The position numbers were made by a program, and so were the translations under genes. 10,109 nucleotides of DNA from IMG/VR virus record IMGVR_UViG_2648501392_000020. One strand, 5' to 3'. The stretch is from a virus. Its lineage: Duplodnaviria > Heunggongvirae > Uroviricota > Caudoviricetes. Positions 2,833-10,109 of the stretch are shown here, in pieces. Every line of letters starts with the position of its first letter. Position 1 is the stretch's first letter. The notes beneath the pieces are model-generated. The model ran no database searches. It saw only the letters and a list, made by a program, of their open reading frames with translations, and was not told where the DNA came from.

Positions 2833-3174
2833 TTACACACGAGCCAGCGGCTGAACAGAAATACCTGAGCCAACAAACGCGGCAACCTTTGCCGACAGTT
2901 CTCTTACAGACTCAGGCCAGTTCAGAGCATCAACATTTAAAACACCTGTCTTATAAACCTGTGCCTGTGTTTTTTTCGCTGTGTCGATTTGTACAGCGGA
3001 AACATAAACCGCTTTGCCTGCGCTCGTTCCATCCCATACCACTAGCGCACCAGTGGCATCTTCCTGCATCAGTGGCGTAAACGCAGGTATTACCCCTTTA
3101 TTGGCTGAAAATATCCCCAGCGTAGTAACCAGTGCTTCAGTGCCAGACATGAGTTCAGTGTAATGAGTAGCCAT
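2833..3174 (-). CDS. Head decoration protein, lambda gpD-like
   Basis: 113 aa. TPLMQEDATGALVVWDGTSAGKAVYVSAVQ...YKTGVLNVDALNWPE...AAFVGSGISV aligns with lambda gpD ([30 protein letters not shown]...YKSGTFRYEDVLWPE...TAFAGTAISIV). GGGGGAG Shine-Dalgarno, 9 nt after the capsid gene stop. Confidence 0.85.
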   Translation of the reverse strand: MATHYTELMSGTEALVTTLGIFSANKGVIPAFTPLMQEDATGALVVWDGTSAGKAVYVSAVQIDTAKKTQAQVYKTGVLNVDALNWPESVRELSAKVAAFVGSGISVQPLARV

Positions 3175-3183
3175 TGCTCCCCC

Positions 3184-4230
3184 TTAGCCAATGCGAACGG
3201 TAACAAAACGATTGATGCGGGCCGGTATTGGCTGTGGTGCTGAATGTGTCTGCACATATTCAATAGCCGGATCACCAGGCACAATATAGTTTTTCGGTGC
3301 AAGTTCGGCTTTAGTCAGCCCCATCCGAATTAGCTCCGGATCCTGAATACCGCCATAAGCGACAATCCCCTGAAGAGCCGTATTGCCAAGCACCATCAAA
3401 TCAGGATCAAGGAAATATTTTTCAGTTCCGTCCTCGTCGGTATAACGCCCGCTGTAAACAACAATCGCAACATCGCCCATATACCCTTTAAAACTCACCG
3501 AATCACCAAGGTCTTTAAGGGCCGTTTCCAGTTCGGAATTAGAACCTCGACGGGTATCCAGAGCCTCTTTTACAGCTCTGAATGAGCGGTATTTTTTCCA
3601 TACATTGCCGCCCATAATAATGATATTAGTGACTCCCTCACTAAATTCTGCGTAGCTCTCAATATCATCATTTGGGTCAAAAGATCCTTTATCCTTACCT
3701 GACCACTCAGCACCGCCAGACTGAGTGATGATATTTTGTGGTTTAATATTCCAGTCCAGCTCATAACGTTCAATACCATCGCCCACAATGATATTTTTCC
3801 CTGTTGTAATTGCCTGAACGGCAAGCCATTCAATACGTGCACGTATAGCTTTAGCCTGATTTACAATCGCCTGTTTAACTTTAATATTACGCGCCCCAAA
3901 AGCATTGTATTGCTCAGGTGATACACCAGCAGGGCGCACAGCTAGCTTATTTGGATCAATGCTGCTTTTCGGTTTCATATAGCCAGGGCGAATTGTTTTT
4001 GATTCGTATCCCTCATCTCGTGAAACTTTACTGCCCACCATAGGAGAGCAAAACGCCGCGATCGGGATATTTGGATCGTCGATCGTATCAAGAATAATGT
4101 CTCTCGATTCAAACATTACCGAGCGAGTGAAAAACAAACTGGTAAACAACGCATTTAATTTTTTTTGCACATCTTCAGCATTAGCCACCTGCACAAGCTG
4201 TGTAGGCGAATATAAATCAACCATACTCAT
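3184..4230 (-). CDS. Major capsid protein, lambda gpE family
   Basis: Long blocks align with lambda gpE (ITQSGGAEWSGKDK...DPNDDIESYA, RSFRAVKEALDTRRGSNSELETALKDLG, GDVAIVVYSG, MVLGNT). Start chosen at ATG 4230 (MSMVDLY, as lambda MSMYTT) with AAGAGG Shine-Dalgarno. The ORF track start at 4311 is an upstream extension. Confidence 0.9.
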   Translation of the reverse strand: MSMVDLYSPTQLVQVANAEDVQKKLNALFTSLFFTRSVMFESRDIILDTIDDPNIPIAAFCSPMVGSKVSRDEGYESKTIRPGYMKPKSSIDPNKLAVRPAGVSPEQYNAFGARNIKVKQAIVNQAKAIRARIEWLAVQAITTGKNIIVGDGIERYELDWNIKPQNIITQSGGAEWSGKDKGSFDPNDDIESYAEFSEGVTNIIIMGGNVWKKYRSFRAVKEALDTRRGSNSELETALKDLGDSVSFKGYMGDVAIVVYSGRYTDEDGTEKYFLDPDLMVLGNTALQGIVAYGGIQDPELIRMGLTKAELAPKNYIVPGDPAIEYVQTHSAPQPIPARINRFVTVRIG

Positions 4231-4440: not shown

Positions 4441-4863
4441 TTAAAACGGTATATTATCGCCGTACGGTTCATCATTCCCTGACTGTTGTTTTGCCCTGTT
4501 CAATGCGTCAGTGGCCTGGCCCTGTTGACCTTTTTTGCCGCCCGGTCGCGCCGTTCTGGCACTGATTACACTATCTGCGATAACCTGCCAGCCCTGCCGC
4601 GTTTCGCCGTTCTGGCCTGTCCACTGGCTCACCTGCATGTTACCCGCCACGCTCAGGAGTTCGCCTTTGTGGTGTTTTGCCAGTGCGTCGGCCTGTCTGC
4701 CAAACGCCAGGACAGATAACCACATCGTCGCCGTTCCGTCATCTGCCTGGCTGCACGGCAGGGGAACCGCCATACTCGCCATCGCCATTTGTGTCCCTTT
4801 GCTAGTGGTCTTTAACTGCGGGTCAGCCACCAGCCGCCCGTAAGCCGCTATCTGTGCTGTCAT
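4441..4863 (-). CDS. ssb: Single-stranded DNA-binding protein (SSB)
   Basis: 140 aa. OB-fold SSB pattern (GRLVADPQL...W..V.AFGRQA...KG..L.V.G......W....G..R) and C-terminal acidic tip ending DNIPF (canonical DDDIPF). GGAGAGGTGG Shine-Dalgarno. Confidence 0.85.
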   Translation of the reverse strand: MTAQIAAYGRLVADPQLKTTSKGTQMAMASMAVPLPCSQADDGTATMWLSVLAFGRQADALAKHHKGELLSVAGNMQVSQWTGQNGETRQGWQVIADSVISARTARPGGKKGQQGQATDALNRAKQQSGNDEPYGDNIPF

Positions 4864-7836: not shown

Positions 7837-8053
7837 GGTGCACCTCCTGCACATCAGCCATGATAATTTTTCCGGCCTTATCCAGTGCCTGATCGGCTTT
7901 TAGCTGCACAAATGCTAAATAATGGAAGATGCATTCTGATTCTCTGGCTGCGTGTTTATGCGCCCTGTCAGCAATAACAGAAATATCAATAAGCGCGTGC
8001 ATCAGCGTAGTGAGCGCGGCGGCTGCTGCGTCCGGTGTGGTTTTATTGCACAT
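7829..8053 (-). CDS. Hypothetical protein, 74 aa
   Basis: ATG at 8053 with GGGGGTAGG upstream. Overlaps neighbours at both ends as part of the coupled operon. Confidence 0.5.
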   Translation of the reverse strand: MCNKTTPDAAAAALTTLMHALIDISVIADRAHKHAARESECIFHYLAFVQLKADQALDKAGKIIMADVQEVHHA

Positions 8054-8249
8054 GGCCTACCCCCTGGCGAATACGGGCAGCGAATACCATCACGCAGCCA
8101 TCAGGAGATTGCTGACGCGCTTCCTGTTCGCTGGTGGCCTCAATGGTAATCACGCGCGGTTGTGCCGTGCTCAGGGCGATAAAACGCCAGATGTATTTAT
8201 TCAGGTTGTACGAGTCCCGCCCTTGCGGGTGTGTGGTATGATTTAACAT
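8043..8249 (-). CDS. Hypothetical protein, 68 aa; first gene of the leftward operon (shares frame with the tail of the 471-codon ORF)
   Basis: Internal ATG at 8249 with GAGGT Shine-Dalgarno 5 nt upstream, about 100 nt downstream of a TTGACA-N17-TAAAGT promoter-like element. Confidence 0.4.
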   Translation of the reverse strand: MLNHTTHPQGRDSYNLNKYIWRFIALSTAQPRVITIEATSEQEARQQSPDGCVMVFAARIRQGVGHVQ

Positions 8250-8347
8250 AGCTACCTCGATACTTTCGCTATCGTTGGTGGTTAGAAGCCCCGTTACTGC
8301 TCCTACAGTGCGGGGTTTCGTCGTTTCTGCACCTTGCATTAACAAGG

Positions 8348-8424
8348 TGTAAGTAACTTTATTTATAGGTGGCTTACATGTCAATGCTTTTATGTAAGAC
8401 TTTTTATGTGTATATTGTCTTACA
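8348..8424. promoter_or_regulatory. Divergent promoter/operator region: leftward promoter (-35 TTGACA 8379-8384, -10 TAAAGT 8356-8361 on minus strand) overlapped by four CTTACA/TGTAAG half-sites
   Basis: Half-sites tgtaag 8348-8353, cttaca 8373-8378, tgtaag 8393-8398, cttaca 8419-8424. Central palindrome CTTACA-N14-TGTAAG covers the -35. A TATATT -10-like hexamer at 8411-8416 faces the plus-strand gene. Confidence 0.5.
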
Positions 8425-8445
8425 CTTTCATTGAGAGGATTACAG

Positions 8446-8751
8446 ATGGCTACAGGTTCAAAAAACGCAAAATCACAATCACTGACAGCTCGGATCCCGC
8501 ATGATGTTATTGAAGGCATGGAATCCGTAAAACTGGACGGTGAAAGCAACGCCGGATTCATCGTAACCGCCATGCGCGGTGAAATCGCCCGCCGCCAGGC
8601 AGAAGGAAGCGGAGAAAACCTCCTGGTTTCTTCGCTCGATGCACTGGCGCAGGTGGAAAAAATCGGAGTCAAAGCAGCCGAGGAGATCGGGCAACTCATC
8701 ACCGTCGCGCGTGAAGAACTCCAGCGTCGCAAGGCCAAAGAGCAGGAGTAA
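8446..8751 (+). CDS. Ribbon-helix-helix-like small DNA-binding protein (candidate island regulator/repressor), 101 aa
   Basis: ATG at 8446 with GAGAGGA Shine-Dalgarno. N-terminal SLTARIPHDVIEGMESVKL...NAGFIVTAMRGEIARRQ fits a strand-helix-helix pattern; the C-terminal half is charged and helical. Composition is clearly more protein-like than the antisense frame. Confidence 0.6.
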   Translation: MATGSKNAKSQSLTARIPHDVIEGMESVKLDGESNAGFIVTAMRGEIARRQAEGSGENLLVSSLDALAQVEKIGVKAAEEIGQLITVAREELQRRKAKEQE

Positions 8752-8808
8752 CCATCACCAGCGCCGTGGTGTGAGTAACTACGGCGCATTGCTATGCAGG
8801 ACAACACA

Positions 8809-8982
8809 ATGACCGATAAAGAATTGACCAAAACATTATCACCGACACGGAAAAGACGGCGCAGAAAGATAGAGCATGAATCAGAAAGATTCGCGCCATG
8901 TGCTTTTGCCCTTGAGCAATTTCTTAAAGAGTACAGGGAAAAGCGCTCATTGCAGGTATGGCAACGAACTGAACCAGACTGA
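8809..8982 (+). CDS. Small basic hypothetical protein (about 57 aa)
   Basis: ATG at 8809 (alternative 8794) with weak AGGA upstream. Lies between the RHH gene and the plus-strand terminator. Lys/Arg/Glu-rich composition. Confidence 0.35.
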   Translation: MTDKELTKTLSPTRKRRRRKIEHESERFAPCAFALEQFLKEYREKRSLQVWQRTEPD

Positions 8983-9061
8983 TTGCATTGCCCACCAGCC
9001 GCAAATGTGGCATTGTTGGCGATGCTCATGCGTTGGGGATAACGTGTAGCTTGTGTCGAGG

Positions 9062-9090
9062 GGCCACCGTAGCGGGTGGCCTTTGTTTTG
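9062..9090 (+). terminator. Intrinsic terminator for the plus-strand RHH operon
   Basis: GGCCACC (9062-9068), loop gtagcg, GGTGGCC (9075-9081), then TTTGTTTTG (9082-9090). Confidence 0.6.
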
Positions 9091-9458
9091 CCTGTTATCC
9101 GGCAATTGTGGCGCTTCGCCACACGGTTGATATAATCCCACTGCTCAGATTCATTTTTTGCGCAGTAGGTTAATTGTTCACAAAGGCGCTCCGGCAACGG
9201 GGCGCTTTTTGTTTTTATTAGTTTGTAGAAACCTGACTCAGAGATAATGCTCATATTCTGATTGCCGTCAGGGGTGTAAGTTAAATTTACTCCCTTTTTA
9301 TCATCAAACATCTGCAACGCTCTGGCGTTAACAATATTGGTTTCACTCCCGCCAGTAAGGCCGGAAATAACCGGAATAATTTCGGCAAAATTTTGCAGAT
9401 TCTGTTTTTCAGGACGAACGAAGCCCCGCCCTTGTTCGGGAGAATATCCAGTATTCAT
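9084..9458 (-). CDS. Bro-N / antirepressor-like ORF, 5' protein-like portion only; the frame stays open to 8043, so the 3' end is undefined
   Basis: ATG at 9458. Segment GNQNMSIISESGFYKLIKTKSAPLPERL resembles the Bro-N core (ISESGLY.LI.RS..P.A). No plus-strand ORF competes in 9180-9458. Downstream, the same frame has Ser/Cys/Arg-rich antisense-like composition. Confidence 0.4.
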
Positions 9459-9510
9459 GGTTAGATCTCTGTATTAGTGGATGGGTGGCGGCTGTGTGCC
9501 GCCAGCCTGA

Positions 9511-9699
9511 TTAGTGAACTGCCTCGCAGCTTTCCTTCCATGCCAGAACTTCGGATAAAGACCAGCCAACGGAACGACCGCCGAGCTTACGCCGTGATGG
9601 GAATTGTCCGGTTTTTTCCAGGCGGTACCGACATGAACGGCTCAGGCCTGTAAGTTGCTGACATTCTTTTTCACGTATAAAGCGATCTGTGCTTAACAC
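9511..9699 (-). CDS. alpA: AlpA-family transcriptional regulator/excisionase-like protein, 62 aa, GTG start
   Basis: HTH block ECQQLTGLSRSCRYRLEKTGQFPSRRKLGGRSVGWSLSEVLAWKE matches the AlpA pattern. GTG at 9699 is preceded by AAAGGGGGA. The upstream ATGs at 9807 and 9867 lack a Shine-Dalgarno and would give an atypically long N-terminus. Confidence 0.65.
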   Translation of the reverse strand: MLSTDRFIREKECQQLTGLSRSCRYRLEKTGQFPSRRKLGGRSVGWSLSEVLAWKESCEAVH

Positions 9700-10109
9700 A
9701 ATTCCCCCTTTGATATTTCTTAAAGAGTTATTTGGTGTCCTATTGTGTTGTGGTGCTTCGGATTGTGTCAGGGTGTTTATGGAATGGCAAACACTGGCGG
9801 CGGTCATTTTACAGAAGTGTGGTAATGAGAATAAAAACTCTTTTAATTCATTGTGGTGCAAAGGCATAAAATTCTGTTTTTACGCCTTTTTTACATGTTT
9901 TTAAGAGTGATTCGCCAATGTACAAAAAGCCAGTAAAACGACTGAAAATCAACTTTTTAGGGTGTCAGTCAGATGTTAATCAAGTTTGTTCCAGATTGTT
10001 CGCCGTTGTTCGTCGTGGTGTCTCGTTGTTTCACGTTGTGTCAGTTCTAAAAAATCGCAAAAAAAATTATATTTCTCTGGCTATTGGCAGTGTGGTTACG
10101 TTTTTGTGA

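Follow-up and report, generated by a model that had tools for sequence, protein, structure and literature searches.

A long stop-free frame antisense to the ylcI cassette of an Escherichia coli satellite-type island, a candidate counterpart of P4 eta/kil

Genes and features of the locus

The window analysed here is a stretch of 10,109 nucleotides, the IMG/VR virus record IMGVR_UViG_2648501392_000020 (Duplodnaviria; Heunggongvirae; Uroviricota; Caudoviricetes), and the element with which we are concerned is a minus-strand open reading frame (ORF) of 471 codons that runs antisense through two genes of the plus strand and that may be the counterpart of the eta/kil frame of P4. The window matches the chromosome of E. 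coli O39:NM F8704-2 (NZ_CP050998.1) at 100% identity; the island to which it belongs is of the satellite type and is flanked by smrA and abgR. Its minus-strand genes follow one another in the order integrase, alpA, the long-ORF region, a group of small genes (one of them a DUF4222 gene), a RepA-family helicase, SSB, and then the major capsid, decoration and helix–turn–helix (HTH) genes and the small terminase subunit. In NZ_CP050998.1 the integrase is interrupted by the IS4-like element ISVsa5 (L001 11168–13735, to the right of the window) and the long ORF is still intact; an island copy with its integrase split in this fashion is probably immobile. The features of the long-ORF region, read leftwards from alpA, are the following.

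9511–9867, minus strand: alpA, homolog of P4 vis (PF05930, 63.8 bits), directly upstream of the long ORF
8043–9458, minus strand: long eta-like ORF, 471 codons, ATG at 9458, the same register being open in relatives
9411–9458, minus strand: conserved start segment of the long ORF, residues 1–16, MNTGYSPEQGRGFVRP, common to Bro-less relatives such as L005
9216–9335, minus strand: Bro-N fragment, residues 42–81, ending at a deletion junction (9216/9217) relative to the related locus L002
9182–9219, plus strand: terminator-like hairpin (9182–9209) with T run, read antisense as KTKSAPLPER
9059–9094, plus strand: terminator-like hairpin (9059–9084) with T run that closes the ylcI–small ORF unit, read antisense as KTKATRYGGP
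8809–8982, plus strand: small basic ORF, 57 aa (phrog_21027 at 1e-15), antisense within the long ORF
8446–8751, plus strand: ylcI/ynfO-family gene, 101 aa (NF041551, 70.8 bits against a cut-off of 30), antisense within the long ORF
8407–8416, rightward: TGTGTATATT, a possible ylcI −10 element
8344–8428: four operator-like half-sites (TGTAAG/CTTACA), two inverted pairs bracketing the divergent promoters
8356–8384, minus strand: promoter-like site TTGACA-17-TAAAGT inside the long ORF, in the position of P4 PLE
8254–8317, minus strand: pair of conserved hairpins in the leader of icd, before its ATG
8043–8246, minus strand: Icd/Kil-like gene, 67 aa (NF033153, 70.4 bits against a cut-off of 25), the in-frame C-terminus of the long ORF

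A preliminary description of this DNA, made from the letters alone, had pointed to a 471-codon stop-free antisense frame at these coordinates, and the ORF listing bears this out (471 aa, ATG start). The stop-free run as a whole comprises 476 codons, with an in-frame TAA upstream at 9474–9476; it is the longest open run of all six frames in the window, the runner-up being the 469-codon helicase. The probability of an open run of 471 codons from base composition alone is ~9e-11, in agreement with the earlier judgement that chance was a very unlikely cause. The anatomy then described (a terminator, a small basic ORF, a plus-strand gene, a divergent promoter and a plausible first gene of a leftward operon) is likewise present in full, and that first gene, in the last 67 codons, proved to be Icd-like (NF033153, 70 bits). 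The middle of the long ORF is rich in Ser, Ala, Arg and Thr, a composition typical of an antisense read, and has no match to any family in Pfam (Phage_ASH included), NCBIfam or PHROG. The Icd-like domain was also the only one that Pfam and NCBIfam found in the long ORF of a Bro-less relative.

Database annotation of the region is uneven (window 8043–8561, minus strand; database proteins P0040, P0051 and P0069). In NZ_CP050998.1, PGAP places the start of a 172-aa ‘Icd-like’ protein, which overlaps ylcI, at the internal ATG 8561, and leaves the remainder of the ORF unannotated. Its calls differ by genome, with Icd-like proteins of 67, 94 and 172 aa, and in strain UTME-10 a pseudogene call overlaps ylcI. 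Many ‘Icd-like’ or ‘ash family’ database proteins of 270–300 aa are long ORFs of the type described here. For alpA, an ATG at 9867 opens a frame of 118 codons, with the AlpA domain at residues 61–110; PGAP calls a 62-aa form only (9511–9699), and the true start is uncertain.

The two plus-strand genes make up a cassette in which the small ORF and ylcI share a frame in 106 of 107 loci. The sequence pattern of YlcI suggests a ribbon–helix–helix fold, and the protein is probably a repressor; a PDB sequence search with YlcI returned no relative. The literature on YlcI/DUF3950 in satellites and on antisense genes at the ylcI locus yielded gene lists only.

Conservation of the open register

The relatives of the island are loci around ylcI homologs that were chosen by the plus-strand protein alone. 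They number ~170 in all, taken from 5 E. coli genomes, 11 loci of other genera (Enterobacter, Photorhabdus, Yersinia, Pantoea, Scandinavium, Lelliottia, Xenorhabdus, Superficieibacter and a record labelled Pseudomonas), 80 IMG/VR loci and 80 metagenome loci, and are phylogenetically linked, so that counts among them overstate independence. In the overlap, the third codon positions of the plus-strand genes are also the third positions of the antisense frame, and an antisense stop in this register needs either a plus-strand Tyr after a codon ending in C or T, or a His or Gln after a codon ending in T. YlcI contains no Tyr; the probability that the ylcI segment is open is ~0.2 given the protein and E. 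coli codon usage, and ~0.43 under synonymous permutation. Of 68 unique ylcI sequences, 65 have no stop in this register, and the other two antisense frames hold up to 9 stops within ylcI, typically 2–9. For the 155 loci in which both limits of the full open run are resolved, its median length is 358 codons, and Enterobacter, Yersinia, Pantoea, Photorhabdus and Xenorhabdus are all represented among the open loci. The loci L109, L041, L011 and L151 carry an antisense-frame stop within ylcI or well before icd.

The spacer between the icd and ylcI start codons (175–547 nt, 74 unique sequences) contains 0.27 stops in this register, versus 6.7 and 6.5 in the other minus-strand frames and 3.4–4.3 in the plus-strand frames, and 59 of the 74 are free of any stop in it. 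The lengths of the spacer are biased too, 18 of 26 distinct lengths keeping icd in frame (P = 2e-4 against 1/3). A comparable deficit is seen beyond the ylcI stop, in the stretch that reaches to the nearest minus-strand gene upstream, with 0.74 stops versus 11.4 and 5.9 (54 unique segments of ≤800 nt). Codon choice within ylcI follows the same direction: four-fold codons preceding CAN or TAN end in T in just 3 of 350 cases (0.9%), versus 21% elsewhere in the same genes, and when these are counted as distinct column states the figures become 2/40 versus 90/385 (Fisher P = 0.003). Ordinary island genes, serving as a control, display no avoidance of T before CAN/TAN (27.9% versus 24.6%) and, in this register, have antisense stops at a frequency of 3.8 per 100 codons. 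Within the ylcI of the K-12 prophage DLP12 antisense stops are lacking, though here the frame is closed 25–50 nt beyond the gene. We have high confidence that the frame is genuinely open, that its openness is conserved and that selection maintains it.

These data bear directly on the notion that the openness is a passive by-product of shared ancestry and of the make-up of the plus-strand genes in amino acids and purines, in a frame that is neither translated nor selected. The lack of Tyr in YlcI, the probabilities of ~0.2 and ~0.43, the absence of antisense stops from DLP12 ylcI and an antisense omega of ~1 (see below) are all as such a by-product would have them. It does not explain, however, why the K-12 frame closes within 25–50 nt of ylcI whereas the satellites cross a spacer of 175–547 nt with 0.27 stops in place of ~6.6, why the terminator region is crossed as well, or why T before CAN/TAN amounts to 0.9% as opposed to 21–28%; nor does it account for spacer lengths that keep the frame or for the spacing to neighbouring genes at both ends. 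We regard it as quite improbable, and a purely compositional explanation was rejected on the spacer, codon-ending and K-12 ylcI controls. The preliminary description had offered antisense constraint as one reason for the open frame, and this stands in part: the make-up of YlcI gives the segment a probability of ~0.2–0.4 of being open, but leaves the spacer, the codon avoidance and the spacer lengths unexplained.

Amino-acid selection on the two strands

For the overlapping frames, omega was obtained by counting sites by class, following the OLGenie approach. In the ylcI overlap the plus-strand gene has an omega of 0.29 and 0.28 (95% confidence interval 0.19–0.41), and the antisense frame gives a dSN/dSS of 0.97 (confidence interval 0.77–1.29) and a dNN/dNS of 0.91 (0.63–1.30). 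In the small-ORF overlap the values are 0.51–0.67 for the small ORF and 0.71–0.93 for the antisense frame, the confidence interval of the latter including 1. Along the minus frame itself, dN/dS is 0.39 in the icd part versus 0.91 in the spacer. The antisense omega of ~1 and the spacer dN/dS of 0.91 together imply that the middle of the long ORF is without detectable amino-acid constraint.

Dual coding proper, in which the antisense frame over ylcI and the small ORF would encode a peptide whose sequence matters, has in its favour the length and conservation of the ORF and its plausible starts. It would entail purifying selection in both frames, and the antisense confidence interval includes 1; the antisense values of 0.97 and 0.91 stand against 0.28–0.29 for ylcI, the middle belongs to no family, and its composition is that of an antisense read. 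Dual coding appears extremely unlikely to us, and we have fairly high confidence that the overlapped stretch does not encode a functional protein of its own. The overprinting entertained in the preliminary description consequently finds no support in the overlap, where antisense omega is 0.91–0.97. The strand-by-strand dN/dS comparison that it proposed places amino-acid selection on the plus-strand genes only, as it had allowed for; the open state of the minus frame is nevertheless selected.

Origin of the N-terminal third

The Bro-N profile (PF02498) matches the long ORF at 13.8 bits, below its cut-off of 25.6, over profile positions 37–85 of 96. The preliminary description had considered the first ~125 codons to be Bro-N-like, which is too generous, as the weak match is restricted to residues ~42–81. 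Window positions 8060–9217 align to 3001–4165 of the related locus L002, and 9216–9320 to 4608–4715, and ~442 nt of L002 (4166–4607), consisting of the C-terminal 94 Bro codons and a spacer, are absent here. The deletion joins Bro codon 98 (YKLI) to KTKSAPLPER at residue 81. In relatives where Bro is intact it is a separate ORF of 192 aa that extends 94 codons past the junction. The same junction, YKLI|KTKSAPLPER, recurs in the database protein P0012, there behind a complete Bro-N N-terminus. Judged by these alignments, the N-terminal third is an in-frame mosaic of the conserved start, ~25 intervening codons and the Bro-N fragment.

The frame 3′ of the junction is open both in relatives with an intact Bro (L002, L006 and L019) and in Bro-less ones (L099, L027 and L007). 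All the rearrangements at the Bro junction preserve the frame, yet the part downstream had been open before them, and simple stop loss is therefore rejected. This disposes of one option of the preliminary description, that a Bro-like gene had lost its stop; the comparison of homologous islands beyond the Bro domain, which it had put forward as a check, revealed the ~442-nt deletion relative to L002 and no simple stop loss. A broader version of the same idea is that an island-specific accident removed the Bro stop and made the gene run on into icd in a decaying island. Such an accident would be consistent with the 442 nt that are absent relative to L002, which fuse Bro codon 98 to the downstream frame, and with the integrase split by ISVsa5. 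It is contradicted by the open downstream frame in intact-Bro and Bro-less relatives alike, by the start segment, which is the conserved long-ORF start of Bro-less loci, and by the recurrence of the junction with another N-terminus in P0012. As an account of the whole frame the accident is refuted and merits hardly any credence; it accounts for residues ~17–81 only.

Ends of the frame, internal promoter-like site and icd leader

The ends of the ORF stand in a close relationship to the adjacent genes. In Bro-less loci, including that of Enterobacter soli, its ATG lies 8–11 nt past the alpA stop and is preceded by a good Shine–Dalgarno sequence (TAA-AGGGGAG-N-ATG), and in the Pantoea and Xenorhabdus loci it overlaps with the stop codon of a complete bro gene. 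Of the 16 unique spacers in which the ORF and icd are in different frames, 14 have the ORF stop between −40 and +22 nt relative to the icd ATG. Both ends are within coupling distance of the neighbouring genes, and this spacing suggests that translation is coupled across them.

Within the long ORF, the TTGACA of the leftward promoter-like site is kept in relatives, and the consensus match of the site predicts promoter activity. The TGTAAG/CTTACA half-sites flank this −35 element and the rightward TGTGTATATT, and look like operators of the divergent promoters, possibly bound by YlcI. The plus-strand terminators provide no U tract on the minus strand. Downstream of the promoter-like site, the two leader hairpins show compensatory changes in 7 of 20 pairs (10 diverse loci), and in the second of them ACC pairs with the GGT of the Shine–Dalgarno sequence GAGGT. 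The hairpins match no Rfam family; they may constitute an uncatalogued element that controls icd translation, a functional analogue of the P4 and P1 target sites. The icd gene possesses this GAGGT and an ATG of its own, and NF033153 applied to the full long ORF matches residues 422–465 at 66 bits.

Taken at face value, a frame that ends in icd might serve a functional fusion, in which the Eta-like N-terminal part and the Icd/Kil domain must be joined and the ~300 codons in between are a free linker. That icd is in frame in 59 of 74 unique spacers, with lengths biased to keep the frame, is what a fusion would predict, and P4 Eta and the many 270–300 aa ‘Icd-like’ proteins in the databases are comparable. 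Yet the N-termini are non-homologous across loci, some ORFs beginning in terminator antisense without any domain; 15 of 74 spacers are unfused, and 14 of 16 out-of-frame ORFs still stop beside the icd ATG. A Ser/Ala/Arg/Thr-rich linker of ~300 residues with an omega of ~1 would moreover be implausible in a protein. We therefore consider a functional fusion unlikely.

Comparison with P4 and other systems

In P4 (NC_001609), a 214-codon ORF (8168–8812) overlaps the 3′ end of vis. Residues 161–208 of this Eta protein match NF033153 at 73 bits, and its middle coincides with the Rfam families C4 and isrK and with Pfam Phage_ASH. The Phage_ASH match (Eta residues 37–161; L179 8329–8704, minus strand) covers the same DNA as the C4 and isrK RNAs, and the conservation of the ‘Ash’ protein family may be owed largely to these RNA elements. 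In the account given by PMC10111431, P4 eta is coupled to the alpA homolog and contains a constitutive promoter, seqA and the CI RNA, and Kil is a truncated Eta (Forti et al. 1999, per PMC10111431). In the same account, translation of Eta from the upstream late promoter prevents termination, and transcription thereby enters the downstream genes (PMC10111431).

The island shares with P4 a long ORF directly after the alpA/vis homolog, its start coupled or within coupling spacing, and an NF033153 Icd/Kil-like C-terminus nested in frame and followed by replication genes, with regulatory elements filling the middle; where P4 has a promoter for the short form inside the long ORF, the island has a promoter-like site. 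The two differ in that the P4 ORF contains the CI (Rfam C4) RNA, seqA (isrK) and Phage_ASH, whereas the island ORF has none of these and instead bears, in the opposite orientation, two protein genes that form a cassette with a promoter and terminators of its own; the frame hence lies antisense to real genes. Rho dependence, furthermore, has been shown for P4 and is suggested for the island ORF by analogy. Membership of the RNA-immunity type was rejected, as Rfam finds no C4 or isrK in the window or in four relatives. The common position, nested Icd/Kil domain and promoter-like site, combined with the absence of the RNA elements and the presence of the ylcI cassette in their stead, argue for an eta/kil-like working rather than plain membership of the P4 type.

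The immI operon of P1 and P7 has the order c4 RNA, icd and ant. P1 employs C4 as an antisense RNA and is not known to have a long ORF upstream. Translation of icd probably gates the downstream genes, and a structured leader is found at the icd ribosome-binding site. The island resembles immI in having an Icd-family first gene, a putative gate for the genes that follow it, and a structured leader beside the icd ribosome-binding site, and departs from it in its long upstream ORF and in the lack of a C4 match.

Like the antisense overlapping genes proposed in E. coli, the frame is a long ORF that lies wholly over annotated genes of the opposite strand; unlike those, which are argued to encode functional proteins, it has an omega of ~1, and selection appears to act on its freedom from stops (PMC9927249, PMC5960689). 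A likeness also exists to the Bro-N proteins of the satellite ‘Bro zone’ as PMC10111431 presents it, in the location between alpA and the replication genes, in the shuffling of domains and in residues 42–81, which derive from Bro-N. In contrast to the proteins presented there, the island ORF keeps ~40 domain residues, below the Pfam cut-off, and the intact Bro of relatives is separate.

A putative translatable read-through frame

We consider it moderately probable, by analogy with P4, that the long ORF is the counterpart of eta/kil, a translatable read-through frame that would take ribosomes from alpA onwards to icd and to the replication genes. The three explanations offered in the preliminary description had left out this precedent; its anatomy and its case against chance were right, and none of the three fits as stated. 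On the eta/kil-like reading, the long frame would start just past alpA, cross the internal promoter and the structured leader and end in frame with icd, and selection would keep the uninterrupted passage of ribosomes to the icd start and not the intervening peptide. Translation could in this manner permit transcripts from the upstream, induction-dependent promoter to escape both premature (Rho-type) termination and the leader control of icd, as in P4, and such transcripts would then reach icd and the replication genes. In this family, the RNA-immunity cassette of P4 (CI/C4 RNA and seqA) would have been replaced by the opposite ylcI–small ORF cassette with its one-way terminators, and with that cassette in place of the P4 RNAs the read-through frame comes to lie antisense over two real genes. 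It is about an even proposition, in our estimation, that a frame of 300–470 codons has been kept across Enterobacterales satellites purely for its translatability while the peptide drifts, with stops purged even at the expense of synonymous freedom in the embedded ylcI, and that the passage acts as an anti-termination and induction-bypass device which might, in addition, silence ylcI head-on.

A number of observations weigh against this interpretation. Translation of the long ORF and a Rho-type terminator are carried over from P4; the minus-strand RNA is mildly C-rich (C/G ~1.1–1.2), with no obvious rut site. Rfam finds neither C4 nor isrK, nor any further family of relevance, in the window (E ≤ 1) or in the four relatives (E ≤ 0.1), and P4 yields both. 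BLASTP of the long ORF against P4 Eta gives no significant similarity, which leaves the NF033153 profile as the link between them, and the middle of the ORF is without a Phage_ASH match. In the window itself the ATG is located 52 nt past the alpA stop and has a poor Shine–Dalgarno sequence. An antisense stop is present in 3 of 68 ylcI variants, and the frame ends >100 nt before icd in two spacers. Finally, for the phylogenetic linkage among the relatives the distinct-state test is a partial correction only.

An additional hairpin in the window

Outside the long-ORF region, a near-perfect hairpin of ~87 nt is situated at 2258–2344, between the HTH gene and the small terminase gene; it may act in termination or have a role in packaging. 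Its sole match, on both strands, was a spurious and sub-threshold one to mir-3910.

Implications

Regarding the long ORF as a read-through frame explains the uneven annotation of these loci, with ‘Icd-like’ or ‘ash family’ proteins of 67, 94, 172 and ~280 aa and a pseudogene call over ylcI. It also describes a third outcome for long antisense ORFs, which in this case would be neither an artefact nor a second protein, but a frame selected to remain stop-free with its peptide unconstrained, and is thereby relevant to the discussion of antisense overlapping genes in E. coli. The eta/kil design of P4 may extend to satellite-type islands that encode a capsid and that use a protein-gene cassette where P4 uses RNA immunity, and the presence of such a cassette suggests that the design is modular across satellites.

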